Below, in pieces: positions 2 to 62,357 of a DNA stretch of 64,000 bases; position 1 is the first letter of the stretch; every line of letters begins with the position of its first letter. The stretch spans positions 250 to 64,249 of the forward strand of contig JAZQZH010000003.1 in assembly GCA_045633945.1 (NCBI GenBank), written 5' to 3'. The position numbers were made by a program, and so were the translations under genes. The notes beneath the pieces are model-generated. The model was not told the DNA's origin. It searched no databases and saw nothing but the letters and a program-made list of their open reading frames with translations. This DNA is from Alphaproteobacteria bacterium (GTDB taxonomy: Bacteria; Pseudomonadota; Alphaproteobacteria; RF32; CAG-239).

Positions 2-157
2 GGAGCATATATAGGGCGCTTATCTGCAAATGGGGATGTACGTGGTTTAACTAATGGAAAAATAGGATATTTAAAAAGTAATGGTTCATATGTTAATACA
101 CGTAATAAAGTTTCAGGATATGTGATAGATGAAGTTGCACAAAATCGGAGGAAGTAA
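2..157 (+). CDS. 3' end of an upstream ORF truncated by the window edge; repeat protein of the same type as the N-terminal region of the following VirB10-like gene
   Basis: Frame starting at nt 2 reads GAYIGRLSANGDVRGLTNGKIGYLKSNGSYVNTRNKVSGYVIDEVAQNRRK, with stop TAA at 155-157. It shows the same 17-residue G-x-[ILV]...G-x-[IV] periodicity as the downstream repeats. It is absent from the ORF track because it has no start codon in the window. Confidence 0.55.
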   Translation, partial: GAYIGRLSANGDVRGLTNGKIGYLKSNGSYVNTRNKVSGYVIDEVAQNRRK

Positions 158-4427: not shown

Positions 4428-4453
4428 GGGTGTCAAAATATTAATTAAGGGGA

Positions 4454-45913: not shown

Positions 45914-46981
45914 ATGGAAAGACCAATACTCGCTGCAATGCTTTCATGTGAAGGAACTTCTTTAACTGATGATGAAAAGTATTTATTTTCGCAATATAAT
46001 CCATTAGGTATAACACTGTTTACAAGAAATATAGTAAGCAAAGTGCAAGCAAAAAAGCTAATAAACGAGATAAAAAATACTATTAATAGAAACGATGTTT
46101 TAATTGCTGTTGATGAAGAAGGTGGAAGAGTATCACGATTACAACATATTAGTGATTTTAAGTATGTATCTGCAGAAGAATTAGGAAAGGTTGATAAGTA
46201 TTTTTCTAAAATTCATGCTCAGCTAATTTCAGAAGAACTAAGTGAACTGGGTATAAATGTTAATTATTCGCCTGTTATTGATAAAAAAATAAATAGTAAA
46301 AGCAAAGTGCTAGAAAAAAGATGTTTTAGCAGTAAAGATGAAGATATTGTGTTACACGCTTTAAGTATGGCCGATGCATATATTGATATGGGTATATGCC
46401 CTTGTATTAAACATATACCTGGGCATTTTTCTTTAGAAAAAGATCCTCATTTAGATGTGATAGAAACAGATTTGTCTCTTAGTGAAATAGAAAAGAATAT
46501 ACAGTATTTGAAAAGCTTTAGTAAGTATCCAATGGCTATGACCGCTCACATCAAAATAAAGTCAATAGATGATGAAAATCCTGTTACAACATCAAAAACT
46601 ATAATAAATAAGATATTGCGTAAAATGCTGCAATTTAATGGGCTAATTATTAGCGATGCAATAGATATGCATGCTCTAGGAGGTAGTATTATTGAAAAAA
46701 ATAATTCAGTAATTGATGCCGGAGTAGATGTTATTTGCTATTGCTCTGGTAAATACCAAGATATGTATTCTATTTGCAGTGAAAAAAGATTTATGAGTGA
46801 AAAATCATTAAATAGATTTGCAAATATAAAAAAAATCATAAATAATAAGCCAAAACATATTGATATTGTAGAGTGTCAAAAAGTTTATAGAGAAAAATTT
46901 CAAGATAGTTTTGATCAAAAATATTCTTATGATGCAACAGAAACATTGCATCAAATGCAAAAGAAAGGAGACAACAGATGA
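45914..46981 (+). CDS. nagZ: Beta-N-acetylhexosaminidase (GH3, NagZ-like)
   Basis: IAVDEEGGRVSRL and KHIPGH motifs, then LIISDAIDM. Confidence 0.8.
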   Translation: MERPILAAMLSCEGTSLTDDEKYLFSQYNPLGITLFTRNIVSKVQAKKLINEIKNTINRNDVLIAVDEEGGRVSRLQHISDFKYVSAEELGKVDKYFSKIHAQLISEELSELGINVNYSPVIDKKINSKSKVLEKRCFSSKDEDIVLHALSMADAYIDMGICPCIKHIPGHFSLEKDPHLDVIETDLSLSEIEKNIQYLKSFSKYPMAMTAHIKIKSIDDENPVTTSKTIINKILRKMLQFNGLIISDAIDMHALGGSIIEKNNSVIDAGVDVICYCSGKYQDMYSICSEKRFMSEKSLNRFANIKKIINNKPKHIDIVECQKVYREKFQDSFDQKYSYDATETLHQMQKKGDNR

Positions 46982-47184
46982 TTTGGTTTTTAGTTATAGT
47001 TGTGGTTATAGCGATATATAATGCAGAGCGTTTGCCTGAAGTGGCAAATAAGTTAAAAAAAGAAGTTCCTCATATTGTTGATGCTGGAAAAAAAGTTTCA
47101 CATGAGTTAAAAGAAAAAGCTCAAAGCGTACAAGCTAAAGCTACAAGTAAAAAAAATACATCAAAAGAAGAAAATAAAGAATAA
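46978..47184 (+). CDS. Small membrane protein, possibly a TatA/TatB-family translocase subunit
   Basis: An N-terminal TM followed by YNAERLPEVANKLKKEV, resembling the F-G-x(2)-K-LP hinge and amphipathic helix of Tat proteins. The hinge Gly is replaced. Confidence 0.4.
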   Translation: MIWFLVIVVVIAIYNAERLPEVANKLKKEVPHIVDAGKKVSHELKEKAQSVQAKATSKKNTSKEENKE

Positions 47185-47191
47185 AAGCACG

Positions 47192-47221
47192 AAAAAAAGC
47201 ACCGTAAAAGGTGCTTTCTTT
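47192..47221. terminator. Bidirectional rho-independent terminator marking the downstream end of the minus-strand accessory block
   Basis: An A-run, then AGCACC, a GTAAAA loop and GGTGCT, then a T-rich tract. On the minus strand it is followed by UUUUUUU. Confidence 0.75.
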
Positions 47222-47939
47222 ATTTTAAAGCCGGAATATTTAATTGTGCGAAATGCCCTGGTTTTATTTTTACAGTTGCATAACGAAGATTGTCTGTTTC
47301 TATCATATATTCTTCACGTCCTGTAAGTTGAGCCGCTAGTTTATAAAAATCACGACCATTAAGCTCTTGTTTATACCAATTCATAAGATAAAAAACACAA
47401 GCTTGACTTTTATCTGTCAACCCACATCTAGGTCTTCCTGATGGTACATCTTCGTTTGCAACAACACCCTCTAAACCATGTTTTTCTACTTTACTAGATG
47501 AAAATACTGATTTTCCTATAAATAAACCAATAAGCAAACAAACGGCAGATACAGCAATAAATAGATTCTTTTTTACATAATCAGAATTTATAAAAGCAAT
47601 ATTATCAATAGGAGATAAATCATAATCAGGAGGCAGAGCTCCAACCTCATATGGAGGTCTTAAGTTTGCATCTGGAGTATCAACATCTTTAAGAGAAACT
47701 ATATAATTAGTTTTATTTTCTGATTTATCTTCATCAGCTTCTAATGATTGTTTTATAGATGTGGGTATCTCTTTTTGAGGAGCTTGAGGAATGTCAGAAA
47801 CCACTCTAACTTTAGGTCTTTTTATTTTTCTTAATTTAGGACGCGCCATATTTTGTTCATTAGATGTAGCAGCTGTATTTTTATCCTGAGAATTCTGTAA
47901 ATTCTCTTCAACAAAACTATCTAAAGAATTATTATCCAT
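47220..47939 (-). CDS. Bitopic membrane protein of unknown function (last gene of the secretin-like operon)
   Basis: A ~120-aa polar/Pro-rich N-terminus, a single TM LFIAVSAVCLLIGLFIGKSVF, and a ~90-aa C-terminal domain with two Cys. Confidence 0.5.
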   Translation of the reverse strand: MDNNSLDSFVEENLQNSQDKNTAATSNEQNMARPKLRKIKRPKVRVVSDIPQAPQKEIPTSIKQSLEADEDKSENKTNYIVSLKDVDTPDANLRPPYEVGALPPDYDLSPIDNIAFINSDYVKKNLFIAVSAVCLLIGLFIGKSVFSSSKVEKHGLEGVVANEDVPSGRPRCGLTDKSQACVFYLMNWYKQELNGRDFYKLAAQLTGREEYMIETDNLRYATVKIKPGHFAQLNIPALK

Positions 47940-47948
47940 AATATCTCC

Positions 47949-49238
47949 TTAAATTTTATTTTTTATTTTTTCATCTGTTTTCAACATTCTAACTAAACGA
48001 GGAACAATAAACACAATAGTTTCGGTTCCTTGCTGTGCCTCTCCAAAAATTTCACTAGGAAGCCCAATAATTAAAAAGTTCTCTCCTAATTGATTTCTAA
48101 CTTTAAATTTTGTTATTTCTCCATCAGTTGTATCTAAAGTTATTTCAGAGAATATTTTACGACTTTTTTCAATATTAGCCTTAGCCAAAATAGATAAAGG
48201 ATACTCCATGTCATTTATCTTTCCGCATCGACCAACATCAAAGCGTGAGAACCATTCAGTTGGAACAATAAAACGTCCTTCAGAAATTTCCTCGATAGTA
48301 GCATATTTGCTAACAAATTCTTTTAATTTTGCAATTGATATATCATTAGTAACAGTAAGCATTCTACCAATTACACCAGTTTGTGTAGTTGCGATACTAC
48401 CAAAGTCAAAATCTTTTAATAAATCATTCCAAACAATACCACAGGTTTCTTTTCCCTTAGCTCTAAAAATATTAACATCATACATAACCATAGTAGGATT
48501 ATTTTCAAAGTCTCTTACCAAACTTTTTATTTTATCAAATGTTTCTAGATTAGTCTCAAATGAAACAGAGTAATCTCGCCAGTTTGTAACCATATCTGTA
48601 ATACCTGCGCCTCGTAATACATCTAAAAATCCTAACATTAGAGTTCTAGAGCTTGGAATATACAAAGTAAAGCTAGCTCTTCTGCTTAAAATTAAAGAGT
48701 TCATCTTCTTATCATAGCGATAAAATAAATCTGATGATTTTGTTATTTTTTCAACAATATCTTTAAAGCTTCCTGATAAGTTTTTACCATATAACTTAGG
48801 GTATGGAGCATCTTTAGCAACTAATATAATGCCAGCTTCTTCTGTTAATTTTAATAACGCTTGTTCCGTAGGTATATTATCAAAAGTGAAATTTCTTACT
48901 TCAAACTCAGGTAGTGCATCATTAATATCATTTCTTTCAAATCTAAAAGAAACATTGTTATGAGGAAGAATTTGCACCATTTCTTGTGTTTTCCAATTTA
49001 CATTGCAACGAAGAGGGGTTTCCAAATCTAAATCATTTGCCCTAAATGTTGTTCTTAGCATATATGGATCTTGAGGAGGTAAAACAACAAAGTTATCAGC
49101 CTTAAAATTCATCTCAGCATTGTTAGTCAAAACAGTCTCATCGTAGTTGTTATATGCACTACATGCTACAACTGTAATTAGTGAAAATAATAAAAACAGA
49201 TGATTACGTTTTTTAAAAAATCTAGACATCTTCATCAC
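47949..49238 (-). CDS. Outer-membrane lipoprotein with secretin-like organisation (N0-like, N1-like and a short secretin core)
   Basis: Lipobox LITVVAC. The N0-like segment is FTFDNIPTEQALLKLTEEAGIILVAKD...LFYRYDKKMNSLILS. The secretin-core-like segment is MVMYDVNIFRAKGKETCGIVWNDL...FIVPTEWFSRFDVG...NFLIIGLPSEI...TETIVFIVPRLVR. Confidence 0.5.
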   Translation of the reverse strand: MMKMSRFFKKRNHLFLLFSLITVVACSAYNNYDETVLTNNAEMNFKADNFVVLPPQDPYMLRTTFRANDLDLETPLRCNVNWKTQEMVQILPHNNVSFRFERNDINDALPEFEVRNFTFDNIPTEQALLKLTEEAGIILVAKDAPYPKLYGKNLSGSFKDIVEKITKSSDLFYRYDKKMNSLILSRRASFTLYIPSSRTLMLGFLDVLRGAGITDMVTNWRDYSVSFETNLETFDKIKSLVRDFENNPTMVMYDVNIFRAKGKETCGIVWNDLLKDFDFGSIATTQTGVIGRMLTVTNDISIAKLKEFVSKYATIEEISEGRFIVPTEWFSRFDVGRCGKINDMEYPLSILAKANIEKSRKIFSEITLDTTDGEITKFKVRNQLGENFLIIGLPSEIFGEAQQGTETIVFIVPRLVRMLKTDEKIKNKI

Positions 49239-49239
49239 A

Positions 49240-49764
49240 TTATTCTTCCGTTTCTGTAAGTTTATTTTGTTCGCTCATAAGTTTTGCAACCACATCATCA
49301 ATACTTTGTCCAGCACCATTTGTTGGAGCATTAGACTGATTAATAAATCCGCTAAATGCGTCTTTCACCACACTCAAATCAGCATCTTTTTTAGCGCTCA
49401 TATCTACTGTAGAGTTTTTCTCTAATTCTTCTTTATATAATCTTAAATTCTCTTTTAGAGCAACAACTCCTCCTTTAATTTTCTTTTCAATATATGGATG
49501 TAAATCTTTATTAGAAATAATATAATTCCCAGTTTCGCATAACTCATCTAAAACATCAATAATATATGGATAAAAAGGATAGTCCTCAACTGCCATATTT
49601 CCTTTTCTTATACAACGAGCAGCAATTCTAGATACCGTACGATCATAATAGTCTCTAATTAGTACATAATTATCAATGTACCAAAGAGCTTCTTTGGTTA
49701 CTTTGATTACATTATTTTCCTCATTTACATTATTTTCTTCTGACATCTCATAACTCCCTTGCAA
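49240..49764 (-). CDS. Hypothetical cytoplasmic protein (174 aa)
   Basis: No signal peptide or TM. It is tightly packed in the operon, with a 1-nt gap to the next gene. Confidence 0.5.
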   Translation of the reverse strand: MQGSYEMSEENNVNEENNVIKVTKEALWYIDNYVLIRDYYDRTVSRIAARCIRKGNMAVEDYPFYPYIIDVLDELCETGNYIISNKDLHPYIEKKIKGGVVALKENLRLYKEELEKNSTVDMSAKKDADLSVVKDAFSGFINQSNAPTNGAGQSIDDVVAKLMSEQNKLTETEE

Positions 49765-49803: not shown

Positions 49804-51819
49804 TTATTTTTTATTATCGTTATTGTTTTCTTCTAATTCTTCTTCAACATACTCCCATTCCCAATCTTGGTCTTCATTATCTTCTATCGGATTCCCATTT
49901 TCATCAACATATTCATACTCCCATTCTTCGTCTATTGCTTCTTGAACACTCGATTCTGTATTGAGTATATCTCCGCCTGCTTCATCTGTATCGTCTACAA
50001 CATACTCATATTCCCATTCATCACTATCTTCTTCTTCAGGAATATTCTCATCATCATTGTAATCATCCAAAGAAATAGGCTCATCAATAGATGATATGTC
50101 GATATTATCAGATGTTAGCGCTGCCCTAATTTTATCTAACTCTGCACTGTATAGACTTTGAGGTCTGCTTTGAGACGCTTTGTCAACATCATCATCTTCT
50201 TCTGATGGCTCAGAAAAAAGATTGTCTATAGTTTCATAGTTATCTTCTAAAACCTCACTCTCTTGAGAGTTCTCTAAATTAAATTCTTCTAAGGGTAATT
50301 TATCAAATTCAGCCTCAAAAGTTGGTGCCTCAAAAGTATCTAATTCGTCGCTTTCTGCACTAAAATTATCTAAAGATAATTCGCTAGATTCTGTCTCAAA
50401 AGTTGGTGCCTCAAAAGTATCTAATTCGTTACTTTCTGCACTAAAATCATCTAAAGATAATTCGCTAGATTCTTCCTCAGATGTGGATCGCTCAAAAGTA
50501 TTATCTTGTTCAGGCAAAACAAAGTCTAATCCATCATCAAAATCATCTTCGAAATCATTATCGAAGCTATCTACAAGAATATCGTTATTGGGTTTAATTT
50601 CGTCTTGAAAATCAACACGTTGTTCAAGTTTTTCTTGTAACTCTAGTGGTGGTTCATTTAAGTCGACATTATCAAATGTATCATTGTGTTTAAATGCTTC
50701 ATTTCTAATAATACCATTGATTCCTAACGCACTAGTTGATGAACTAAAGGTATTTAACTTCTGTTCAGTATTATTAATAGAGTTATTTTTATTTTTTTTC
50801 TTCTTCTTCTTTTTATGAGTAGAAAATTTATCGGATGTTTCACTATATACATTTACTGCTTGATTACTGTTTTCATCATCTTCTATATCATTTTTATCAT
50901 AATTTACTCGACTATAGTCCTGCTCAACCACAACATTAATTGGTTTGGTTTGTAGCGACATCAAAGTGTTAGTATAATCAGTAAACATTTCTTGAATTTT
51001 GCTCAAAGACTGCTCAAACTCAGTCCTCATTTCATTTTTAAATGCTTTTAATTTACTTTCAATATTCAAGTAATCAGATATTTCATTGTTCTTTTGAATG
51101 TTAGCAGAATATAGTCCTTCTAAAAGTTTGGTTATTGAAGTTTGAGAGGCGATAATTCTATTATTTAAATCCGCCGTGCCAATATTATCTTTTGTTCTTG
51201 ATGATAAAATACCTTCTAAAATTCTAGAAATAGAAACTTGTGATGCAATCACTGAATCTGTAATACTTTTTGTTTCGCGCAAAACATCCAATAACGATGC
51301 TCTAGATGTTCTAATCTCTTCTGCTATAACGTCAAAAGTATTACCAAAATCAAGAGTTGTGCTACCAGTTACACCCGCAGAAACAGTCGCTTGCATAGGG
51401 TTTTGCTTGAATGCAGAAGCCATGGAATTTGCAAGAGCTTCCGCAAAAGAGGCGTCAACAGTTATACTGCCCCCAACAATAGGAGTAATGGCTCCTCCAG
51501 TTGCTTGCGCTGGTTGAGAAGATTCTCCCATTCCACTTCCTTCTGCAAAGTCATCTTTATTTGATTTTACAAAAGATATACCGCGTTCTGTTTTAACTTC
51601 TTCAATATGTTCAACTAATAGTCTGCCACCAGGCATTCGTTTAAAGAAGTTTGTAATAACAGGAGGTAAAGCCAATAACTCGTCATCAAATTGATCACGT
51701 TTTGCTTTATTAAAAATGTGTACTTGTCTAAAAATATTCAAATAGCGTTGAGCCACCAAAATAGGGGCTTCTTCAGTACTTTTATTACTACCGAACTCTG
51801 CATCATTTAAATTTTCCAC
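49804..51819 (-). CDS. 671-aa highly acidic repeat protein (first gene of the secretin-like operon)
   Basis: GTG start. The N-terminal ~330 aa hold the internal repeat IASQ[VT]SI[ST][RK][IL]LEG[IL]. A K-run follows, then an acidic C-terminal half with 27-aa tandem repeats and three [DE]W-E-[YW]-E-Y-V motifs. Confidence 0.6.
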   Translation of the reverse strand: MENLNDAEFGSNKSTEEAPILVAQRYLNIFRQVHIFNKAKRDQFDDELLALPPVITNFFKRMPGGRLLVEHIEEVKTERGISFVKSNKDDFAEGSGMGESSQPAQATGGAITPIVGGSITVDASFAEALANSMASAFKQNPMQATVSAGVTGSTTLDFGNTFDVIAEEIRTSRASLLDVLRETKSITDSVIASQVSISRILEGILSSRTKDNIGTADLNNRIIASQTSITKLLEGLYSANIQKNNEISDYLNIESKLKAFKNEMRTEFEQSLSKIQEMFTDYTNTLMSLQTKPINVVVEQDYSRVNYDKNDIEDDENSNQAVNVYSETSDKFSTHKKKKKKKNKNNSINNTEQKLNTFSSSTSALGINGIIRNEAFKHNDTFDNVDLNEPPLELQEKLEQRVDFQDEIKPNNDILVDSFDNDFEDDFDDGLDFVLPEQDNTFERSTSEEESSELSLDDFSAESNELDTFEAPTFETESSELSLDNFSAESDELDTFEAPTFEAEFDKLPLEEFNLENSQESEVLEDNYETIDNLFSEPSEEDDDVDKASQSRPQSLYSAELDKIRAALTSDNIDISSIDEPISLDDYNDDENIPEEEDSDEWEYEYVVDDTDEAGGDILNTESSVQEAIDEEWEYEYVDENGNPIEDNEDQDWEWEYVEEELEENNNDNKK
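50314..50473 (-). repeat. Two tandem copies of an 81-bp (27-aa) unit, about 96% identical
   Basis: Nt 50314-50392 versus 50395-50473 differ at 3 positions. They encode SSELSLD[DN]FSAES[ND]ELDTFEAPTFE[TA]E. Confidence 0.85.
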
Positions 51820-51879: not shown

Positions 51880-52851
51880 TTATAATGCTATATCAACAAC
51901 CTTGTGAATTCTATTAAAGTCATCGTTATCAAAGTGGATTCTTTCATCAGGATTCCACATTAAACCGTACAATTTACCTTGCTCATCTTCTCTAACGCTA
52001 ACAACATAAGCTTCTTGCTCATTTCTGTAATAAAGAGCAATATCACCAACACTGGCAACCTCGGTTGGGTCAACAAACATGACAGCTCTATTAGATAAAA
52101 TAGAACCAAGTCTTCTTGTGCAAAGGTTAACACCATAAACATCTCTTTTTTCAAAAAGATTTGCAGGTTTTACAGCCTCTTTAGAATATGCCGATTTATC
52201 AATAATGATAGCGCCATCTGTTCCAGATAATCCAAATACTGGAACTTTCAAAGCTTCCATATCAACATAACTACTTTGTTCTGTAATCATTCTTGTCATG
52301 TTGTTAACTTTGTACTTAGTGTCATTATGTGTAATAATTTCTTCTAAAGCACCAGCTTCATCTAATCTTTTTATTTCAGATTTTAAAACATCAAGCTCCA
52401 TATTTAATGCGCGAGCAATGTTATTATATTCTTTATCAGATACCTCACGTTGTCCCATTTCTATACGATGATACACCGATAAAGTCATATCTGCACGCTC
52501 AGCAACTTCAATCAATGTTAAAGATTTATCATTTCTGATATATCTAAGAGCAGCTCCCAATACTTTTAGACCACTACTTTTGTTTATTTCTTGTCTACGT
52601 TCTTGTTCTTTTTTCCAAGCAAGAACAACTTCTTGTTGAGAATTCTGTTCGTTAACATATAAATCTTGTAAAGAACAATCCAAAATTTCTGCAACAGAAA
52701 TAAGTTGTTCTTGATTAAGGCGTCTATAACCTTTTTCTATCTTAGAAATTGCAGAAAGACTAATACTAAGTTTATCTGCTAAATCTTGCATTGAAACACC
52801 ACGCATTTTGCGGTTAATTCTAATTTGATTAGGAAATACAATTTCTTCCAT
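51880..52851 (-). CDS. Transcriptional regulator with two XRE-type HTH domains and a C-terminal LexA/CI (S24)-like domain
   Basis: HTH 1 is RKMRGVSMQDLADKLSISLSAISKIEKG and HTH 2 is IRNDKSLTLIEVAERADMTLSVYHRIEMG. The C-terminus VPVFGLSGTDGA...VGDIALYY...LMWNPDE is colinear with the LexA C-terminal domain. Confidence 0.7.
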   Translation of the reverse strand: MEEIVFPNQIRINRKMRGVSMQDLADKLSISLSAISKIEKGYRRLNQEQLISVAEILDCSLQDLYVNEQNSQQEVVLAWKKEQERRQEINKSSGLKVLGAALRYIRNDKSLTLIEVAERADMTLSVYHRIEMGQREVSDKEYNNIARALNMELDVLKSEIKRLDEAGALEEIITHNDTKYKVNNMTRMITEQSSYVDMEALKVPVFGLSGTDGAIIIDKSAYSKEAVKPANLFEKRDVYGVNLCTRRLGSILSNRAVMFVDPTEVASVGDIALYYRNEQEAYVVSVREDEQGKLYGLMWNPDERIHFDNDDFNRIHKVVDIAL

Positions 52852-53007: not shown

Positions 53008-53038
53008 AAAAAAAAGGCTTAAATTTAAGCCTTTTTTG
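53008..53038. terminator. Bidirectional terminator downstream of the VirB6-like array
   Basis: AAAAAAAA, GGCTTAAATTTAAGCC, TTTTTT. Confidence 0.75.
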
Positions 53039-53128: not shown

Positions 53129-56100
53129 TTATCTAAGCTCTATGCCTTGTTCTTCTGCTAATTGCTGTGCTAATTCTGGATTTTCAATTTTAAGCTGTTG
53201 TAATAGATTCTTTTTACCTCTTTCTCTATTACGTTGAATATATTTGTCACTCATATGTCCATCATATGTTCCACTATCAATACGCTCAAAATACTCATTA
53301 GCCTCTTGACGGATTAATCTTTCTTTTTCTGTGTCAGAAATAGATTCATCTTTTCTAATGGCATTCATTACATTTGTAGTTGTATCAGTATCAAGGGCTC
53401 TTCGTTTTGATTGCATACTATTATGTACAGCTTCATCTATTCTTTGTTGTGCTTCCTCATTTTTAGCTGTGATAATAGCTCTACCACCACCATTACGTAC
53501 ATCAACATCATCCTCATGAGACATTGCATAACTTTCTATAGCATCTTGCTCAACTCCAGCAAAATCATATACCCCACCAGGATGTTGGCGTACAAGTTCA
53601 GCGGCAGCCCTAGCTTCTTCATAACTAAGATTACCATCTTTCAATTGTTGATTTGTTTCATAAACTTGGCTATTACTAGATGTGTCTACATCTATATTAT
53701 ATCTTTCCTCTCTTTCTTTGTCAAAATTATGCTCCTCTTTAGGCTCTTCTTCTCTAGGCTCCTCTTTAGGCTCTTCTTCTCTAGGCTCATCTTGAACTAT
53801 CGGAGTTTCTTGATTTTCCTCTGGTATAGTATCATCTTTATTATCTTCTTCCCTAGTATCTTCTTCTTCAACGATTGGAGTTTGAGAGTCATCATCTCCA
53901 TCATCGTTATCATCATTATCTTCTTCCTCTTCTTGGTCCTCTCTTTTATCCTCTCTTTCATCTTCGTCTTGGATAATTGGGATTTCTTCCTCAAATTCCT
54001 GTGTAGGATTCTCTTCTTGCTCATCCCAAGTGCAACTCATGATGTCATAGTCTAGAGAGGTTGAACCTCTTCTTGTTCCTTCTGCTAAAATTTTACTGCT
54101 TAAGATATCTTTTGAGTGTCCAGCTTGAACATTTGCAACATCTTCCAGTGCATCTATACCATATAATAGGCCATTTTTATGGAAGTCACTTCCAACTAGA
54201 TCAGAAGCAATTATACCATTTGCATCAACAACATCACCAATACTCGCTCTTCCTTCCATAACCCCGTCAGAATATTTAAAGTCAGTACCAGAAACACCCC
54301 ATCTACGGTAGCTGTTGATTTCTACGCTACCATTATCAAAATAAAGTCGTCTATCGTCTGTGGTACCATATCTGTTAGATATAATATGTTCATTATAGTA
54401 CGAAAGTATTGGCTGTCCATTAAATGGATTAATTTCCATAGATGCATTTATGATCTGACCATCAGAATTTACTTGTTTAATGAGAACTTTGTTTGGATTT
54501 TTAGGATCAATAATAACATCTCTAGATTTATAATTATCGCTAAATGTACATCCTCTCTTCTTAAGAGCATCTGTGGCTATCGCATCCATTATTTTTCCGC
54601 GATATTTTGGATCACGTGCAATGCTAGAATTTAGAACTTTGCGAGCAGCATCTCCATTTATTTTACCATTCTCATCAACAAAATCCTGCATTCTATATGT
54701 ATTTTCTAGCAAACTAGTACTTAATCTATTTGTTTTATTTCTAGCACCATTAGCTAAAATTTCTTTAACAACATATTCTTTAGCATCTAAACCAACAGGT
54801 ACTACACCTAAATCGCTGAGCGCATCCATACCAAACATAAGATCTTTTTCTTTAGCTCCACCTTGATTAGGATCCAAATCTTTAGCAATTTTACCATTGC
54901 TATCAACAATTTTTCCATCCTCTCGTTTATCAGAAAAATGACGATGATTCTTTTGTGCTTCTTCAGAATATTTATATGTAGTTACTTCTTCTCCATTAGA
55001 TTTTCTGCGTGTTGATATTTCAACCATACCATTGTTAATGTAAGATGATGCTTCACCATTTTTATGTTGTGTCATATGTGCAATAGAAGTACGTCCTGTT
55101 TTAGGATCAATTTCCATAGAAAATCTAGTAATTCTACCATTATGGTCAACCTGCTCAACCGTGATTTTATTAGGATTTTTAGGATCTGTTATAATTTTTC
55201 TAGAATTATAGTTTTTGCCTACTTTTATACCTTTCTTTTCTAGCGCCATGGTCGCAAATTTAGCCATCATCATTTCGCGATATTTAGGATTTTGAGCAAG
55301 CGGAGAATTCATAATATGATCCATTGCACCTTGGTTTATATTACCCTTTTCATCAAACATATGATCATTAACAAAGCTATGTCTAAATTTAACATCACTG
55401 CTAATAACATTTCCATTTTTATCTGTAACTTCTTTAATTGTAGAGTATCTATCATAAGTCGCAGAATGGGTTCTACCATTTATAGGGTTAGTCCAAGTAC
55501 GTTTAAGAAGCGTTTTACCAGTATTGGGATCAACATCTGTCTCAAAGCTTAAGTTACCAATTTTAATTCTTTTTCCACCACTGCCGTTGTCTTTACCAAA
55601 TGTATTTACAATTTTGCCCATACCAACTCTAGCAATATTTCTAGTACCATTTTTAGCTCCTCTATATACTGCCCCAGCGCCTTTTGCAGCAGCTGTACCC
55701 ATCTTATCTGCAAGTTTTCCAGAAACTTCATCCATTTTACTAGATATTGCCTGACCAATCTTAGCACCAGCAGCCATCCCAGAACCTCCAGCAAAGAACT
55801 TCGCTAGTTCAGAGACAATTGGCATATATGTCATTCCTAGAATAAGAACAAATATAAGCATGAACATATTTGGTCCCCAAAAAGCAAGACCTCTATTTCC
55901 ATCATAAAACACTTTACTCGCGCTAACATTAGAAGTCGCATTTATTAAAATACTCTCAATATATCCTAATATGCAATTGAGTAAAATCGCCATAAACATA
56001 AATACAAACAATGTATTAAGTATCCAATCCCATATTTTACTCAAATATCCTTTTGTACCATTGAAGGCATAACCACAAACAGCAAAGGGTAGTAATGTCA

Positions 56101-56920
56101 TTGCAATGCCTAATTGGAATACAGCATCAGCCATAACCCAAGGATATGTCATCATAAAGAATACGCCAGCAACGTATAATATTATACCGTCTACAATTGC
56201 AATAATACGAGGAATCAAGAATAATATTCTATCAGGTCCGGTACCACGACAAATTGCCCATTCACCATATTCAAATAAAAGGTTTATTTTGTTTTCGATA
56301 CTTTGTACACAACAAACAATCATCTTACCTACACTAATAGGTATTCCGCCTCGGCTTGAGCCGGAAAAAACATCACCAAAACCAATAATTCCACCAGAGT
56401 TAGAGCAGCTAACCATTGATTGAGGATCATTATTAGTTGAAATAAAACTCATAACTGTTTCAAATACAGGCACTAGTGTTAGTGTTAAAATTTCATAGTA
56501 GTTTTTTGTTATAATCATATATATAACAATAACTACAAACACTTTTCTTAAAATATCATTCATCATAGAGCCATAATCTTTAGCGCTCATTGATGCTAAT
56601 TGTTTTAATACCATTAAACTAAGAGAAACACCCAAAAAGACTAATAGAACCTCTGCTAAACTAGATGAAAATACATTATAAGCTCTTCCAGCCATTAAGC
56701 TTCCAGCATTAAAGATAGCCTTAAACATAGGGCAGAATAAGCAAAATGATTTATCTACATATGGGGTAGAGCAAGAGATGTCTGTATCAATACCCATGGC
56801 ATTAAGAGTGAGTTCGAATAAATCCATAAGCAAACCAGCATGAGCTATTGTTGGCATTATTAGCGCAAAGCAACCAATAATAATTGGCAAATACATTTTA
56901 TTTTTAATAAATTTCATCAT
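53129..56920 (-). CDS. virB6: VirB6/TrbL-like polytopic membrane protein with an ~830-aa soluble C-terminal extension (1263 aa)
   Basis: The N-terminal ~375 aa are colinear with the upstream paralogues: CLFCPMF, ASMSAKD, and the core motif VMADAVFQLGIAMTLLPFAVCGYAF. Downstream lie a duplicated ~215-aa module, an acidic region and a helical C-terminal domain. Confidence 0.7.
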   Translation of the reverse strand: MMKFIKNKMYLPIIIGCFALIMPTIAHAGLLMDLFELTLNAMGIDTDISCSTPYVDKSFCLFCPMFKAIFNAGSLMAGRAYNVFSSSLAEVLLVFLGVSLSLMVLKQLASMSAKDYGSMMNDILRKVFVVIVIYMIITKNYYEILTLTLVPVFETVMSFISTNNDPQSMVSCSNSGGIIGFGDVFSGSSRGGIPISVGKMIVCCVQSIENKINLLFEYGEWAICRGTGPDRILFLIPRIIAIVDGIILYVAGVFFMMTYPWVMADAVFQLGIAMTLLPFAVCGYAFNGTKGYLSKIWDWILNTLFVFMFMAILLNCILGYIESILINATSNVSASKVFYDGNRGLAFWGPNMFMLIFVLILGMTYMPIVSELAKFFAGGSGMAAGAKIGQAISSKMDEVSGKLADKMGTAAAKGAGAVYRGAKNGTRNIARVGMGKIVNTFGKDNGSGGKRIKIGNLSFETDVDPNTGKTLLKRTWTNPINGRTHSATYDRYSTIKEVTDKNGNVISSDVKFRHSFVNDHMFDEKGNINQGAMDHIMNSPLAQNPKYREMMMAKFATMALEKKGIKVGKNYNSRKIITDPKNPNKITVEQVDHNGRITRFSMEIDPKTGRTSIAHMTQHKNGEASSYINNGMVEISTRRKSNGEEVTTYKYSEEAQKNHRHFSDKREDGKIVDSNGKIAKDLDPNQGGAKEKDLMFGMDALSDLGVVPVGLDAKEYVVKEILANGARNKTNRLSTSLLENTYRMQDFVDENGKINGDAARKVLNSSIARDPKYRGKIMDAIATDALKKRGCTFSDNYKSRDVIIDPKNPNKVLIKQVNSDGQIINASMEINPFNGQPILSYYNEHIISNRYGTTDDRRLYFDNGSVEINSYRRWGVSGTDFKYSDGVMEGRASIGDVVDANGIIASDLVGSDFHKNGLLYGIDALEDVANVQAGHSKDILSSKILAEGTRRGSTSLDYDIMSCTWDEQEENPTQEFEEEIPIIQDEDEREDKREDQEEEEDNDDNDDGDDDSQTPIVEEEDTREEDNKDDTIPEENQETPIVQDEPREEEPKEEPREEEPKEEHNFDKEREERYNIDVDTSSNSQVYETNQQLKDGNLSYEEARAAAELVRQHPGGVYDFAGVEQDAIESYAMSHEDDVDVRNGGGRAIITAKNEEAQQRIDEAVHNSMQSKRRALDTDTTTNVMNAIRKDESISDTEKERLIRQEANEYFERIDSGTYDGHMSDKYIQRNRERGKKNLLQQLKIENPELAQQLAEEQGIELR
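53731..53784 (-). repeat. Perfect 27-bp tandem duplication encoding PREEEPKEE x2 in the acidic linker
   Basis: GCTCCTCTTTAGGCTCTTCTTCTCTAG occurs twice back to back, at 53731-53757 and 53758-53784. Confidence 0.85.
54041..55363 (-). repeat. Internal duplication of a ~215-aa module within the VirB6-like extension (protein-level similarity)
   Basis: Module A (aa ~520-740) reads DEKGNINQGAMDHIMNSPLAQNPKYREMMMAKFATMALEKKG...IITDPKNPNKITVEQV...GMDALSDLG. Module B (aa ~745-960) reads DENGKINGDAARKVLNSSIARDPKYRGKIMDAIATDALKKRG...VIIDPKNPNKVLIKQV...GIDALEDVA. Confidence 0.75.
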
Positions 56921-57888
56921 TATTTGCCTCCCTCCGGTTTTTTGGTTTTAGCCATACTTTTACCCATATTATAAGCTATTCTTTGTAGAGCATTACCATC
57001 TTTATTCCCCATTTTCTGAAGTTTCTTGCCAGCCTGATGTTTCGCTACGTCTTTAGCATATTTTGTTGCTTTACCTATTGTTTTTTTCTTCAAATCGCCA
57101 AGTGCTTTTGTGAGTTTTTCATTTAAAGGATTACCAGCAAGAGCAGAACCAAAGAAGTGTCCACAAAATTCTACGGCTAACAAAGGAATCACCTTAAATG
57201 CTACAATATAGCTCAAAAGAACTTTTAAGAAAGATAAAGTAAATAGAGATAATTTATCTTCTATCAAATCTGATCTATCATTAGCAAAGGCATCTTCAAG
57301 AACTTTTGCACCACCAAATACATCTGCAAGTACAGAAATAACAATACTATTAGCAATCAATATACCCAAAGGCAAAAAGATAAATACACCAACATAGTAA
57401 ACTATACTACTAAGAATCTTTTTCAGCTTGTCTTTAGTCCAACCAAATGGCCACAGAGCAATACCTAGGGGGAGTAAACAGATTCCAAGTGATAAATTAA
57501 ATGCAATATCAAATAAATAAAATGCAGAAGCTAGCGATACTAAAAATCCAACAATAATTAATAATACTGATGCAAACCATAAACCCAAATGTATAATACG
57601 TTCACTAAACACAGTCATACCCAATACTTCATAAGTCCAGTCTGCAGCTTTTCCATGCAAAGAACTACAAAATAGCATATCACCAAACTTTAGCATTTGA
57701 GAAGAGGCAGTGTTTATACTTTTTGCTAAATCATATATTGTATCAGAAAGTTTCTGCATAGAACTTCCACCAGATAGTGCGCCATATTCTATTCTAGGTG
57801 TTTCTATAGCCGCATGTGTCTCAATAGGGCTAAATAGAATGCCAAGACAAAAAACAAATATAAAACTAAAATATCTCATCTCCAGCAC
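56920..57888 (-). CDS. VirB6/TrbL-like protein corresponding to the central and C-terminal part only (322 aa) with its own signal peptide
   Basis: Core motif YLFDIAFNLSLGICLLPLGIALWPFGWTKD and a basic K/A-rich tail. The likely start is ATG 57879 (MRYFSFIFVFCLGILFSPIETHAA) after GGAG; the track start is GTG 57888. Confidence 0.6.
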   Translation of the reverse strand: MLEMRYFSFIFVFCLGILFSPIETHAAIETPRIEYGALSGGSSMQKLSDTIYDLAKSINTASSQMLKFGDMLFCSSLHGKAADWTYEVLGMTVFSERIIHLGLWFASVLLIIVGFLVSLASAFYLFDIAFNLSLGICLLPLGIALWPFGWTKDKLKKILSSIVYYVGVFIFLPLGILIANSIVISVLADVFGGAKVLEDAFANDRSDLIEDKLSLFTLSFLKVLLSYIVAFKVIPLLAVEFCGHFFGSALAGNPLNEKLTKALGDLKKKTIGKATKYAKDVAKHQAGKKLQKMGNKDGNALQRIAYNMGKSMAKTKKPEGGK

Positions 57889-57890
57889 TC

Positions 57891-58415
57891 CTATAGTATA
57901 TTCGCATTTTGATTAAACCCAATGCCGATTGAATATCCAATATCAAGCAAAGGTGCTACAACAAATTCTACGATTGTGTCGATTCCTGTATAGATTAAAA
58001 CATAGCACAACGCCCACTTGAAAAAGAAAGTAAGAAGCGTATCCATTGTTTTAGATGTATCTTGTGCTGTAAAAGAACCAAAGCTTTTAATAAAGAATGC
58101 AGCAACCCAAATAGCACCAAAATATAATAGAGCAGTTAAACTCACCTCTCTTAATGCAACATATATATCTTCAACTGTTTTAGTCATACTTTGCATTAAG
58201 CTTAAAACTACATTACAAGACCAGCAATCTGCTTCTTCATATTTTCTTCTAAATATTTCTGCAGAGCAATATGCCAAATATTCTCTATCAGCTCCTGCAA
58301 GAGATGTTTTTGCAAAAAGTATTGTTGCACAACCTAACACTCCACTAAATAATTTATTAGGGAGCATTTTTATAATAAGCAAATTCTGCTTTATTTTATT
58401 CATCATCGTCATCAT
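57891..58415 (-). CDS. Membrane protein matching only the N-terminal module of the VirB6-like paralogues (174 aa)
   Basis: DCWSCNVVLSLMQ...TALLYFGAIWVAAFFIKSFGSFTAQD... is colinear with NCLLCILFDTL...TLYATAILIVFNSLKLMGSFGKLD of the 445-aa paralogue. Confidence 0.5.
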   Translation of the reverse strand: MMTMMNKIKQNLLIIKMLPNKLFSGVLGCATILFAKTSLAGADREYLAYCSAEIFRRKYEEADCWSCNVVLSLMQSMTKTVEDIYVALREVSLTALLYFGAIWVAAFFIKSFGSFTAQDTSKTMDTLLTFFFKWALCYVLIYTGIDTIVEFVVAPLLDIGYSIGIGFNQNANIL

Positions 58416-59700
58416 TGTTATACCCCGCTAATTTATTTAGTTTTTCACTAATATTAGATTTAACCTGCTTAATTGTATCCATTTTATCTCTGAAAAATTC
58501 ATATTTTTCTAAAGCTTCGGTTAAACTTTCAGTTGCTTCATCAGTTAAAGCATTTAACGCTGTTGCAGCAATCTTCTTAGCTACTCTCATTACAAACTTT
58601 GATATTTTCTTTTCAAAGTCTAATCCTTGACCGCCTCCAATAAATTTATTAGCAAGCGTAACACCCAGCCCAGGTATGTTTAGTAATAATAATGATATTA
58701 AGAACATCGCCATAAGTGACGGACCAACACCATTTAAATCTCCTTTACCCATATTTTGCATGCCATTAATAATGTGTTGTAATGAGCCAACTGCAAGTGC
58801 TACAAGCAGACCTATAAAGAACATTATTCCAGATGAGTTAATAAACATTTCATAGCAGTATTTTACCCATTTTCTTGTAAATTTGAATGGAATTCCCATC
58901 ATCATCAACGGAATAAGAATAACCGCAAAATTTAATCTAAATAAAGAGTCTACAAGATATAGCACAAAACCGAACTTAGCACAAGTAAAGAACAAAAGGA
59001 TAGAAATACCTACAAGAGATGAAGCAAAACCACTACCTAAAAGAGCAATACCAATTCTAATACCCGAACCTAATCTTGAACTGATTAAACAAACAATGCA
59101 GTTTGTCATAGGCATTATTCCAGCTTTTATATTTGTCATTTGAGTAAATGTGCTTTCACACTGAATATTTGGGCTAGAAAATGTTATATTACCAAGCCAT
59201 CCTAATTTTGCAGTAAGAGTGAAATTTATTGGTTCAAGAATGCGTGAAGTTAACTCCAAAAATGTTTGATAAATAGGTATAACAAATGTTTCAATACCCC
59301 ATCTAATATCGCCAATTGAGCTAACCATCCATGCACAAAAAGCACACAAGAATAATTGTTGACCAATTTCAGTCCATACTTCGCCTAAGCTCTCAGCTTT
59401 AAATGAGGGCATTATTTTTATCATCTTAAATGCCATCCAAACAGCAAAACCCATCATAATTACAGTTGGACCACCATCAACCACTTTTTGCGCAGAAGAA
59501 ACAAATAATTGATCAATTATTTTAAGTACCGCTGATACAATATATGTTTGCCAACAGTCTGTCTGTTTGTTAGCATTTTCACCACTACCGGCCCCCGGAT
59601 TCTCTTTACCGCAAGCGCACAAAACAAGTATAATAGCAAACAAGGCAACCTTACTAAGTACATTAAAAGAGAGATATTTTTTCCAATTTATTTTTAACAT
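58396..59700 (-). CDS. virB6: VirB6/TrbL-like polytopic membrane protein (434 aa)
   Basis: Signal/lipobox-like LVLCACG, then MPSFKAES and the core motif YLVDSLFRLNFAVILIPLMMMGIPFKFTRK. Multiple TMs. Confidence 0.7.
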   Translation of the reverse strand: MLKINWKKYLSFNVLSKVALFAIILVLCACGKENPGAGSGENANKQTDCWQTYIVSAVLKIIDQLFVSSAQKVVDGGPTVIMMGFAVWMAFKMIKIMPSFKAESLGEVWTEIGQQLFLCAFCAWMVSSIGDIRWGIETFVIPIYQTFLELTSRILEPINFTLTAKLGWLGNITFSSPNIQCESTFTQMTNIKAGIMPMTNCIVCLISSRLGSGIRIGIALLGSGFASSLVGISILLFFTCAKFGFVLYLVDSLFRLNFAVILIPLMMMGIPFKFTRKWVKYCYEMFINSSGIMFFIGLLVALAVGSLQHIINGMQNMGKGDLNGVGPSLMAMFLISLLLLNIPGLGVTLANKFIGGGQGLDFEKKISKFVMRVAKKIAATALNALTDEATESLTEALEKYEFFRDKMDTIKQVKSNISEKLNKLAGYNNDDDDE

Positions 59701-59715
59701 ATCAAGTCCCCCCTT

Positions 59716-61053
59716 TTAATTTCGCCACCAAGCTTTATAACCTTGACTGCCGGTTCCTGTTAAGACACCTCTTACAGTTGTCATTTTTTCTTTTGCAAAC
59801 TTACCAGCTTTATCTAAGCGTGTAATTCGAGCCAGTGCATGTCCACCTTCTTTAGCAACTTTTTTAGCCACATGTTTAACAGGAGCCGAAGCAGCTTTAG
59901 CAAGAGGTTTAGTTGCTTCAGCTCCAGTTTTAGAGCCGGCACTAGAAACAGGGGATACACCGGAAATATTGCTTACAAGCGGTTTTAAGTTATCCAATAC
60001 TTTAGCAAGCAAAGCAAAACAAACAATTGTTAACAATAAAGAACCAGAACTCCATAATCTTTCTGATGCAGCATCTATATTATTTCTATCAAGTAGTTTT
60101 CTAATATTACCGCCAAAAGAATTTGAAGCGACAACACCATTTTCATCAGCCTCACCCAAGCATAATAACATTAATTGAATAGAAAGGCCTAATAGTACTC
60201 CAAGCATAACAAATCCAAAGAATACACCTATGAATTTTTCCCATATCTTTTTACCATGACCACTTGTTTTATCAGATATCATAAAGGCAATACCTAAAGG
60301 TAAAAGCATTGCAGCAAATGCTAAATCAAACATTAAATCTATAATATAAAAGCAAGTAGCTACAAGAAGTGACCATCCAAATACAAAGAAAATAATACCA
60401 TAGCAAAGCATTAGCCATTTCCAAAATAATATAAAGTCATCAGTAGCGTTGCACATCATTGCTTTTCCAATAGCAACAACATTATATAACTCATCATTAT
60501 ACGCTCTAGCTCCTTCGTTTACCAAACTAAACAAAGCAGGCCATCCACTACCGCTAAAACTCCAGTTGAATTTTACATTTCCAGCTATTAGGCTTTGTCC
60601 AATCACTAATCCAGAGTGCATAATCGGTATAAGTATTGAGTTTATTATAAACAAATCTTTATCTGTTAACAACAAATAGATTACAGCCATTTTAAATCCT
60701 AAAAATAGCATGCCTTTTTTATCTGCAGTTAGATATGTTGGTACATCAAGTTTACCAAAAGATCCCATAAGTTTTAAGCTGTTAAACACAATTAAAATTG
60801 CTGTTGCATATAATGTAACCATAGCAAGAGGTTTTGCAAACATATTCCACGTTCTTGTAGCAGCATCAGAAGAGGCTTCTGTTAAAGTATCAAATAAAAT
60901 ACATAATAAACAATTTTTTCCAATGCCATCATTTAAATATCCTTGGAAAGTATCACATCCGCCACAAGCATTGAGAAACAGAACTAAGAATAGAGATATA
61001 AAGAGTTTTTTAGCTCTTTTTATCTTTTCATAAATGTTGCTAAAAATAATCAT
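59716..61053 (-). CDS. virB6: VirB6/TrbL-like polytopic membrane protein (445 aa)
   Basis: LFLNACGGC, then CLLCILF and GSFGKLD. The core YIIDLMFDLAFAAMLLPLGIAFMISDKT is colinear with A. tumefaciens VirB6 (YDAVGILTKVLLAIGPLILVGYIFDRT), recalled from memory. Confidence 0.72.
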   Translation of the reverse strand: MIIFSNIYEKIKRAKKLFISLFLVLFLNACGGCDTFQGYLNDGIGKNCLLCILFDTLTEASSDAATRTWNMFAKPLAMVTLYATAILIVFNSLKLMGSFGKLDVPTYLTADKKGMLFLGFKMAVIYLLLTDKDLFIINSILIPIMHSGLVIGQSLIAGNVKFNWSFSGSGWPALFSLVNEGARAYNDELYNVVAIGKAMMCNATDDFILFWKWLMLCYGIIFFVFGWSLLVATCFYIIDLMFDLAFAAMLLPLGIAFMISDKTSGHGKKIWEKFIGVFFGFVMLGVLLGLSIQLMLLCLGEADENGVVASNSFGGNIRKLLDRNNIDAASERLWSSGSLLLTIVCFALLAKVLDNLKPLVSNISGVSPVSSAGSKTGAEATKPLAKAASAPVKHVAKKVAKEGGHALARITRLDKAGKFAKEKMTTVRGVLTGTGSQGYKAWWRN

Positions 61054-61064
61054 ATCAACTCTCC

Positions 61065-62357
61065 CTAATCCTTAATCCTGAAGAAATTCTTCACGCTTTG
61101 TCTAAAAGCAAGTTTGGCATCATCATATTTATCAGCTGCATTTTCTAATGCTTTTCCTAATCTAGTTTTCTTAAAGTCATCTTTAGCTGTTTTGGCAACA
61201 CCTTTTGCAAGGTGTTGCCCAACTGTTTTAGCAGGTTGAGCCACAGCTTTCATTGCTTCAGCCCCCATTTTTTGTCCCGTTTTACCAACAGAACCAGATT
61301 GTCCCGAAATTCCATCAACAGTTGCTTCAATCTCTGTAAATACTCTAAAAATTAACATACAGCATAGAGATGTTAATATAAATCCTTTAGGTGATAAGTT
61401 ATTAACTAAACGGTCAACTTGTGGTATTGTTAGAACAGCATTACCCGTTAGATATTTCATAGTGTCACCATTGCCTCCGATAGCTTTTTCTAACATTCTA
61501 ATAGAAAGATTCATAGCAAGTCCTAACACAATAAAGTTAAAGCTTACATTGACAAATAGAGCCCATGCTTTACCCGTGTATTCAACCGTAAATTTAGACG
61601 CCATACACGCAATAGCCATTGGTAATAAGATACAACCAACAGCGAGTCTAAATAAAACATCTAATAAATAAAATGCAATGCCTATACAAATTAACCATCC
61701 CATAATGTATACAACAAAACCAAAAGGTAATAAGCTCCAATACGTATCAAAAAAACTATCTGGTAAAAAGGCTAAACAAACAAGTTCACGCCCCATAGCA
61801 ACAATCGTATAGCTAGATTCGTTGAAGTCTTGTATCTTCTTTACAACGCCTGTTAACAAACTTCTAACATTAGTAGCATCACTAAAATCAGCACTCATTG
61901 CAGTTGGTGAAAAAGCAGTACCCATATTCATAGATGTTGCAATAACCGGTGAAATTACATTTTGATATATAAATGTGTTTCCATCATTAGTCAAAAGTAT
62001 CATAATAAAAGCCATTTTGGCCATAAGTGGAATAACACCTTTCTTTTCGTTAGAAAGATAAGCAAAAGTATCTTGTCCAGAGAAGGAACTGATATTTTTT
62101 AAAGTATAAACTGCTATATATATAGACGAACCAATAGCTATAACTACTTGAAGAGGTAATGCAAATACACGCCATGAAGTCTCAGCAACAGAAGAACAAG
62201 CATCTACAATGGTTCTAAAAACAGGCAATAAAATGAAGTTTTCACCAACACCATCATTAATATAGTCACCTAACGTAGGACAGCTAGCACTAGCAGGAAA
62301 TACTACGAATAGTATGAAAAACAATATATATGTAATGCATGATTTGATTTTATTCAT
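61065..62357 (-). CDS. virB6: VirB6/TrbL-like polytopic membrane protein (430 aa)
   Basis: Signal peptide, then SSFSGQD and the core YLLDVLFRLAVGCILLPMAIACMASKFT. It has a K/A-rich tail and is a clear paralogue of the 445-aa protein. Confidence 0.72.
   Translation of the reverse strand: MNKIKSCITYILFFILFVVFPASASCPTLGDYINDGVGENFILLPVFRTIVDACSSVAETSWRVFALPLQVVIAIGSSIYIAVYTLKNISSFSGQDTFAYLSNEKKGVIPLMAKMAFIMILLTNDGNTFIYQNVISPVIATSMNMGTAFSPTAMSADFSDATNVRSLLTGVVKKIQDFNESSYTIVAMGRELVCLAFLPDSFFDTYWSLLPFGFVVYIMGWLICIGIAFYLLDVLFRLAVGCILLPMAIACMASKFTVEYTGKAWALFVNVSFNFIVLGLAMNLSIRMLEKAIGGNGDTMKYLTGNAVLTIPQVDRLVNNLSPKGFILTSLCCMLIFRVFTEIEATVDGISGQSGSVGKTGQKMGAEAMKAVAQPAKTVGQHLAKGVAKTAKDDFKKTRLGKALENAADKYDDAKLAFRQSVKNFFRIKD

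Follow-up and report, generated by a model that had tools for sequence, protein, structure and literature searches.

An alphaproteobacterial lipoprotein homologous to pilus secretins has kept the barrel walls and lost both gate hairpins

A 64,000-nucleotide stretch of contig JAZQZH010000003.1 (assembly GCA_045633945.1, Alphaproteobacteria bacterium; the whole stretch is called the window below) was analyzed with respect to one open reading frame (ORF) at 47949-49238, whose product is referred to here as T429. T429 is a true but highly divergent homologue of the lipoprotein secretins of pilus systems, as judged by profile-profile comparison, by a fold search with a confident structural model and by a hidden Markov model (HMM) search. 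Its architecture is that of BfpB from enteropathogenic Escherichia coli (EPEC), with a predicted lipidated linker followed by an N0 domain, an N3 domain and a secretin core. Gates 1 and 2 have been cleanly removed from this core, as has the stretch where the amphipathic helical loop (AHL) of secretins lies, while the barrel walls have been kept. We consider, at a probability of about 0.6, that T429 is a gate-less, ring-forming secretin derivative which docks the product of the downstream gene, d239, and acts as a pilus-independent envelope scaffold or conduit. An earlier reading made from the DNA letters only (the sequence-only reading) had proposed a lipoprotein secretin homologue with a shortened core, either minimal or repurposed, and the hhalign, fold search and HMM search results presented here support that proposal.

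Scans of T429 against Pfam and NCBIfam, including the Secretin, Secretin_N and STN models and the PilN model TIGR02520, gave no match at E≤1, and a PDB sequence search with either T429 alone or a 40-sequence profile returned nothing relevant. A database search detected 832 homologues; among the 120 of these that were listed, all were "hypothetical" or nameless and none carried a precomputed Pfam domain. When 28 diverse members of the family were scanned with Pfam, Secretin matched none of them, while weak matches to STN and Secretin_N were observed in four members and one member, respectively. A search of 1.84 billion representative proteins with a family HMM yielded 198 proteins; the distant matches were 460-845 aa in length and aligned to query positions ~97-336. 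All 10 of the distant matches tested against Pfam carried Secretin, two of them with a fused TcpQ domain, and by NCBIfam the distant secretins were nearest to MshL and PilN, below the cut-offs, with TIGR02520 scoring at E 1e-7 to 1e-20.

The 28 family members (alignment A2) were compared by hhalign with 37 Pfam-positive lipoprotein secretins taken from the distant matches (alignment A3). The two profiles aligned with a probability of 100% and an E-value of 2.8e-41 over 335 columns, and the alignment was colinear from upstream of N0 through the last strand. Using the core only (residues 249-429) the E-value was 2.5e-15, whereas the controls, comprising five column-shuffled profiles and one reversed profile, gave values of 0.5-0.8. 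The sequence-only reading had matched the core of T429 to that of secretins through four motif pairings (MVMYDVNIFRA...GIVW, ATIEEISEGRFIVPTEWFSRFDVG, NFLIIGL and TETIVFIVPRLVR), and all four were reproduced by hhalign. Secretin homology of the core, as claimed there, was borne out both by these E-values and by fold matches to secretins only. When the A3 profile was searched against PDB, BfpB was the best match (E 5.9e-34).

With respect to predicted structure, a first AlphaFold2 (AF2) model built from close homologues only had a poor core (predicted local distance difference test score, pLDDT, of 57.6). The model built with a diverse 87-sequence alignment reached a mean pLDDT of 85 and a predicted template modeling score (pTM) of 0.74. 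A Foldseek search of PDB with this second model gave 33 matches at E≤1e-3, every one of which was a secretin; BfpB (6e-10) and Vibrio cholerae PilQ (7e-10) were at the top, followed by InvG, GspD, Pseudomonas aeruginosa PilQ and RcpA. A fold search against viral models produced more pIV-like matches with no better superposition, and a tblastn search against plasmids gave one marginal secretin match. A literature search on secretins in this clade found no report of a bacterial secretin, the matches concerning the hormone secretin only. The sequence-only reading had named two results which together would have told against it; the first, lack of any secretin profile match, was what we observed, but the second, an unrelated fold, was not, as the predicted fold is secretin-like.

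The ORF was found where the sequence-only reading had placed it and lies on the minus strand, no strand having been given there. It encodes 429 aa from a GTG codon (ORF list and translation). An alternative ATG one codon downstream, at 49235, yields 428 aa and is probably the true start, because this is the length of the homologues P0001 (99% identical) and P0002 (92%). The N-terminus has the typical layout of a lipoprotein signal, with a basic KKR n-region, a hydrophobic h-region and the lipobox VVAC, which had been reported previously at aa 23-26 and was confirmed. Among 40 close homologues Cys26 never varied, and in 87 diverse members extending down to 22% identity it was conserved to at least 90%. 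T429 is predicted to be lipidated, sorted to the outer membrane and tethered there by lipid. The ratio of nonsynonymous to synonymous substitution rates (dN/dS) against four homologues was 0.05-0.11, and the gene is under strong purifying selection and not decaying. The gene and the parts of its product are as follows.

47949..49238, minus strand: coding sequence of the secretin-like lipoprotein T429 (ORF list, homologues, dN/dS)
49161..49238, minus strand: signal peptide and lipobox VVAC, residues 1-26, with Cys26 as the predicted lipidated residue (sequence and conservation of Cys26)
48945..49160, minus strand: linker equivalent to BfpB LG, residues 27-98 (pLDDT profile and invariant columns; BfpB LG described in PMC12531336)
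48684..48944, minus strand: N0 (STN-like) domain, residues ~99-185 (AF2 pLDDT >90, Foldseek, weak STN match in 4/28)
48498..48683, minus strand: N3-type ring-building domain, residues ~186-247 (beta-alpha-beta-beta-alpha in the model; aligned to the pre-core domain of A3 and BfpB)
47979..48497, minus strand: shortened secretin core, residues 248-420 (hhalign core E 2.5e-15, secondary structure of the model, transferred BfpB barrel map)

BfpB has been described as consisting of an LG linker, N0, N3 and a secretin domain, N1 and N2 being absent (PMC12531336), and the same order was recovered in T429. In the linker, residues 30-55 are disordered and residues 56-98 are highly conserved (ETPLRC...Q89), including an invariant Cys78. 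Two alpha/beta domains, at ~99-185 and 187-247, were modelled at pLDDT ~90, with Foldseek structure matches to secretin N0/N1 domains of EscC, InvG, MxiD and XcpQ and to N0 of PilQ. The N0-like segment of the sequence-only reading thus corresponds to an alpha/beta domain at ~99-185 which matches secretin N domains. The segment it had called N1-like is indeed a secretin-type alpha/beta domain, but the N1 label does not hold, the domain being N3 in BfpB nomenclature. In the core, strands 249-262, 282-296, 387-394 and 405-420 are equivalent to the outer wall and strands 313-334, 349-356, 361-370 and 373-383 to the inner wall. The premise that T429 is a very short secretin was not upheld, as its total length is unexceptional: the f1 pIV chain (PDB 7ofh) has 414 aa and the NCBIfam HofQ model 419 positions. 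The part of T429 which is unusually short is the core, at ~170 aa, and it is short because three internal segments are deleted.

These deletions were mapped by alignment of A3 to BfpB, by hhalign transfer to the family and by counting residues between conserved anchor columns. BfpB residues are given in precursor numbering, which is the PDB chain index plus 17 and was checked at the published N3/secretin boundary (R306/T309). In BfpB the outer barrel comprises residues 307-392 and 495-545, the inner barrel residues 393-405, 431-460 and 480-492, gate 1 residues 406-430 and gate 2 residues 461-479 (PMC12114550). By hhalign transfer, all wall segments of both BfpB barrels have counterparts in the family, and the model strands matching them were 249-262, 313-334, 349-356, 361-370, 373-383, 387-394 and 405-420. 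What is left at the three sites of deletion in T429 is listed here.

48195..48236, minus strand: gate-1 stump, residues 335-348, containing the invariant Cys338; ~19 residues absent compared with secretins, after RFDVGRCGK
48123..48128, minus strand: gate-2 stump, residues 371-372, a tight turn at LDT-DGE; ~21 residues absent compared with secretins
48027..48056, minus strand: AHL-position stump, residues 395-404; ~19 residues absent, equivalent to BfpB 504-526

The anchor distance across gate 1 was 10 residues in the family (8-10, n=87) versus 29 in secretins (28-37, n=37), and that across gate 2 was 14 (13-15, n=87) versus 34 (n=37). At the AHL position the distance was 13 in the family (7-20, n=87) versus 32 in secretins (26-35, one truncated sequence aside, n=37). 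Given such uniform distances across the family, the deletions are ancient, uniform and maintained. Loss of the two gate hairpins was not mentioned in the sequence-only reading. Its statement that the usual VPxLGDIPxxGxLF motif is missing was in agreement with the 13 residues found between anchors in place of 32; the VPxLGDIPxLGxLF motif is absent from T429, the vestige being at most GLPSEIFG, which forms a four-residue helix in the model. In the A3 profile alignment, the GspD counterpart of the BfpB 504-526 position was VPLLGDIPVLGYLF. We take motifs of the VPLLGDIPVLGYLF type to be those that form the AHL, the role of the AHL having support from published work and this exact motif assignment not. 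The AHL, which lies between the two transmembrane strands, has been described as a secretin signature and as essential for insertion into the membrane (PMC8134430). The two gate hairpins are common to the published secretin structures, and the role of the AHL is likewise described (PMC7545093, PMC8134430).

Both Cys78 (nt ~49005-49007) and Cys338 (nt ~48225-48227) were invariant in all 87 members. A disulfide between them is plausible and would pin the N-terminal segment onto the former gate-1 site.

A profile scan of one genome per species found the family at 73 loci, nearly all of them from uncultured Alphaproteobacteria of gut, rumen or termite origin with a few from hydrothermal or spring sources; a few of the record titles name Bacteroidales, Lactobacillales or Clostridia. 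Neighboring genes were counted with iterated HMMs over 81 loci. A u174-like gene was present in 72, a u671-like gene in 61, the regulator in 54, a d239-like gene in 51 and VirB6-like arrays in 33, the arrays occurring in the lineage of the window and at L040, L042 and L079. Genes of the u174 and d239 types were present even beside the most distant members, which are 23-28% identical (L078-L081). In those family loci for which Pfam-annotated gene lists were available, neither pilus nor type II secretion genes were seen, most other loci having been compared with the window proteins only. The nearest canonical secretin, P0209, adjoins a T2SSF platform gene. Two other distant canonical lipoprotein secretins, P0215 and P0265, have the TcpQ partner domain fused at their C-terminus, an arrangement not known to have been described for type IVb pilus secretins.

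In one large, divergent subgroup (L044-L074) the secretin-like gene is followed by genes for a LolCE-like permease, carrying FtsX and MacB_PCD domains, and an ABC ATPase (for example L071 11262-13326 and L064 11169-13133). No polytopic VirB6-like genes were found within 10 kb upstream in this subgroup. The position of the secretin-like gene beside LolCE/LolD is probably synteny only; a lipoprotein gene fixed beside a likely lipoprotein-sorting transporter may also be meaningful.

In the window, T429 is encoded by the fourth gene of a tightly packed minus-strand unit consisting of a helix-turn-helix (HTH) regulator, u671, u174, T429 and d239. The members of this conserved operon and the signals around it are given below in order of transcription, the upstream elements first.

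53010..53037, no strand assigned: symmetric hairpin flanked by A and T runs, between the VirB6-like array and the regulator gene
52960-52931, minus strand: promoter-like site upstream of the regulator gene
51880..52851, minus strand: regulator carrying two HTH domains of the Xre type, with whose gene the conserved module begins (Pfam HTH_3 in two stretches, E 1.6e-23; 54 loci)
49804..51819, minus strand: u671, an acidic, repeat-rich cytoplasmic protein of 671 aa (helical domain common to long u174 forms)
49240..49764, minus strand: u174, an acidic protein of 174 aa with no signal peptide and the most constant neighbor (stop codon 1 nt from the T429 start; 72/81 loci)
47220..47939, minus strand: d239, the downstream partner, 239 aa (9-nt gap to T429; homologues in 51 loci)
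47192..47221, minus strand: terminator-like hairpin, a 12-bp stem followed by a T run, directly 3' of the d239 stop and the probable end of the operon

The d239 protein begins with a disordered cytoplasmic segment, which is followed by a single transmembrane helix and an 85-aa periplasmic domain in which two cysteines are invariant (alignment A8). Its periplasmic domain had no match in PDB or Pfam, and in a database of 5.8 billion proteins it was found in hypothetical fragments only. Comparison of the d239 domain by hhalign with the C-termini of the bridging secretins, of which two have a Pfam TcpQ domain, gave a probability of 0.04%, and the two are unrelated. No relatives of known function were detected for u174, u671 or d239 using Pfam and NCBIfam and, for d239, further searches, and none of the neighbors of T429 gave a TcpQ or pilus match in Pfam. 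Both u671 and u174 are without signal peptides and known homologues and appear as shuffled modules, these being an N-terminal 'RYLNxFxQxHV' module, a helical 'ALxxW...FGDxG' module common to both and a C-terminal 'ARCxxxG...YPxYG' module. Between the modules are tandem repeats which are long, acidic and proline-rich and differ greatly in length (window; L043, L071, L078, L080).

The window comes from the chromosome of an alphaproteobacterium of low GC content (~31%) and contains dnaA, dnaN, recF, yidC, recG, mfd and dnaX. The window ORFs that were scanned included no pilus, Tad or type II secretion gene. Genes with likeness to type IV secretion components were found at two places.

53129..62357, minus strand: array of five or six tandem VirB6/TrbL-like polytopic membrane protein paralogues, with products of 1263, 322, 174, 434, 445 and 430 aa (Pfam TrbL)
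129-5446, plus strand: giant VirB10 followed by VirB11 ATPase (Pfam), ~43 kb from the VirB6-like array

Pfam TrbL matched 10 of 28 array members drawn from the window and related loci, with a best E-value of 3.5e-9 for an orthologue at a related locus; the window copies themselves were weak (E 0.006 and 0.6). A profile of the VirB6-like array found nothing among PDB sequences. In the 1263-aa member the C-terminus is extended by a long, repeat-rich and highly acidic stretch. The giant VirB10-like protein has at least 1432 aa, its frame being open to the window start; a TrbI domain occupies residues 1130-1325 and is preceded by about ten inserted 'beta-flower' repeat stretches (Pfam PF21785). 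A scattered virB layout, such as that of VirB10/VirB11 relative to the VirB6 array here, is a feature of Rickettsiales rvh systems. In Rickettsiales virB3 and virB4 precede the VirB6 array; neither is directly upstream of the array in the window, where a 291-aa protein with a hydrolase-like 'LLHGY' motif (62614-63489, minus strand) and a 152-aa predicted lipoprotein with a signal ending in LLSAC (63443-63901, minus strand) are encoded instead. GC skew turns from positive to negative at ~47-48 kb, a peak of cumulative skew (window ~46000-48000) that coincides with the convergent gene junction just downstream of d239, with dnaA at 12.7-14.2 kb. This flip may be a replication landmark or a mere coding-strand switch.

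Our explanation is that a secretin has probably been turned to a new function in the envelope, pilus genes being absent from the surroundings scanned. N3 and the barrel strands would probably mediate oligomerization of T429 into a ring unable to gate as a secretin does, and this ring may not penetrate the outer membrane. By analogy with the docking of GspC or PilP to the N0 domain of their secretins, N0 of T429 would probably dock the small, disulfide-bonded periplasmic domain of the bitopic inner-membrane protein d239. The outcome would be a lineage-specific, envelope-spanning scaffold, or a conduit for whatever cargo it might carry, working without a pilus machine. Several observations weigh against this explanation. 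Not one Pfam or NCBIfam secretin model scored T429, even at E≤1. Global TM-scores of the model against secretin protomers were low (0.15-0.29), and the modelled protomer may therefore pack unlike a canonical ring subunit. Since the AHL has been described as essential for insertion (PMC8134430), a true outer-membrane pore is doubtful. As the d239 domain is unlike anything known, its docking role is proposed by analogy only, and d239 is absent from the large subgroup with the LolCE-like permease and ABC ATPase after the secretin-like gene.

Some of the same observations would be expected if T429 were a repurposed lipoprotein which forms no ring, that is a monomeric or low-order periplasmic adaptor or an envelope structural protein with no channel. 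The compact and confident monomer model (pTM 0.74), the low TM-scores to ring protomers, the absent membrane-insertion loop and the two invariant cysteines, which could hold the N-terminal segment against the former gate site, are all in keeping with such a protein. We regard it as unlikely given that the wall strands of both barrels, together with N3, the domain that drives ring assembly, are retained and conserved, and that strands 249-262 and 405-420, at 14-16 residues, have the length usual in barrel walls and not in a small globular fold. In our view, equally unlikely is an assignment to an rvh-like type IV secretion system, in which a secretin-derived ring at the outer membrane or in the periplasm would work with the VirB6 paralogues, VirB10 and VirB11 and would supplement the VirB7/VirB9 core or take over part of it. 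Such a role would be a narrower version of the ring-forming scaffold proposed above and not an exclusive alternative to it. In the window and at 33 of the 81 loci, including the divergent L040, L042 and L079, a VirB6/TrbL-like array stands immediately upstream of the operon, the giant VirB10 and VirB11 are encoded within the same 64 kb, and N0-like lipoproteins do occur in type IV secretion cores, a weak match to chain 7mud_Ad being an example. The array is parted from the operon by a hairpin with terminator features followed by a promoter-like site, however, and in the LolCE-adjacent subgroup the 10 kb upstream contain no polytopic VirB6-like genes. To our knowledge, moreover, no type IV secretion system uses a secretin-domain protein.

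It is quite improbable that T429 is an ordinary orphan secretin, odd by divergence only, which serves a type IV pilus, Tad, competence or type II secretion machine whose genes are in another part of the genome. A secretin is not always encoded next to its system, and both the clear homology to pilus secretins and the BfpB domain order would fit; nevertheless the gate hairpins and the AHL-position segment are absent in 87 of 87 members, the gene is locked into a conserved non-pilus operon across deep divergence, and the nearest real secretin, P0209, adjoins a pilus platform gene, whereas none was seen beside members of the T429 family in the annotated loci. The reading of the ORF as a pseudogene in decay, or as a product of chance whose motif likeness is accidental, would account for the lack of matches to curated families. 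The 832 homologues, a dN/dS of 0.05-0.11, consistent deletions in 87 sequences and an hhalign E-value of 2.8e-41 against ~0.6 for controls leave it next to no probability, and it was ruled out on the conservation and selection data.

A more speculative proposal, to which we give little weight at present, is that the family forms the outer ring of an unrecognised envelope-spanning apparatus in host-associated Alphaproteobacteria, in which an ungated, lipid-tethered, secretin-derived barrel would be coupled by way of the inner-membrane protein d239. Such an apparatus could be the outer-membrane portal of the neighboring rvh-type type IV secretion system or a stand-alone conduit with no pilus. 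The portal version, if true, would be the first type IV secretion system with a secretin-domain protein, as far as is known. Secretins are defined by a gated double barrel, assembled as a 12-17-mer, which opens for a pilus, needle, phage or folded protein. The T429 family keeps the barrel walls and ring-building domains, drops the gates and the insertion loop and, at the annotated loci, travels without filament machinery, and if a ring still forms, it would show what the secretin scaffold can do without gating. The family may also indicate a new envelope system in an abundant clade of uncultured gut and rumen Alphaproteobacteria. As the members listed are unnamed or hypothetical and carry no precomputed Pfam domain, secretin surveys based on Pfam or TIGRFAM miss the whole family.

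Turning to known systems, the weak Foldseek match to chain 7mud_Ad (E 0.04) is to the Legionella Dot/Icm outer-membrane complex, which is all that the tool output names; we take this chain to be DotD. DotD has an N0-like domain only and no secretin core. If the chain is DotD, it offers the case of an N0-like lipoprotein in a type IV secretion core. The f1 pIV protein (PDB 7ofh) is similar to T429 in total length (~410-430 aa) and was matched by both Foldseek and profile. It has minimal N domains (N0 and N3), both gates and the AHL, is not a lipoprotein and is phage-encoded. A precedent for a heavily reduced secretin kept for a specialised system is GspD of the mitochondrial type II secretion system (miT2SS), which has lost its N domains and the front of the core and has kept the AHL (PMC8134430). 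The reduction in T429 is the opposite, in that the N domains and barrel walls are kept and the gates and AHL are lost.

The closest sequence relatives are the MshL/PilN-like secretins P0209-P0270, most of which are lipoproteins and which share with T429 a pre-N0 'D-x-L-P' strand, N0, N3 and the core. Unlike T429, they pass Pfam Secretin, have full-length gates and keep the AHL-position segment. As in BfpB (EPEC; PDB 9u5s), TcpC and PilN, the sequence of T429 indicates a lipobox and a lipidated linker before N0, then N3 and the core, without N1 or N2, and BfpB was also the best Foldseek match, the wall strands of both its barrels aligning with those of T429. In contrast to BfpB, T429 is missing both gates and the counterpart of BfpB residues 504-526, as well as the extended N3 hairpin (judged by eye in the alignment). 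It also differs from BfpB, TcpC and PilN in having no BfpG/TcpQ partner, pilin, ATPase or platform genes nearby and no match to TIGR02520. By three canonical marks of a secretin, namely the Pfam model, the gate hairpins and the AHL, T429 does not qualify, and we therefore file it as a new, unannotated variant of the secretin superfamily outside every named family. Of the systems compared, T429 would work most like, and descends from, the lipoprotein secretins of the BfpB/PilN/MshL type.

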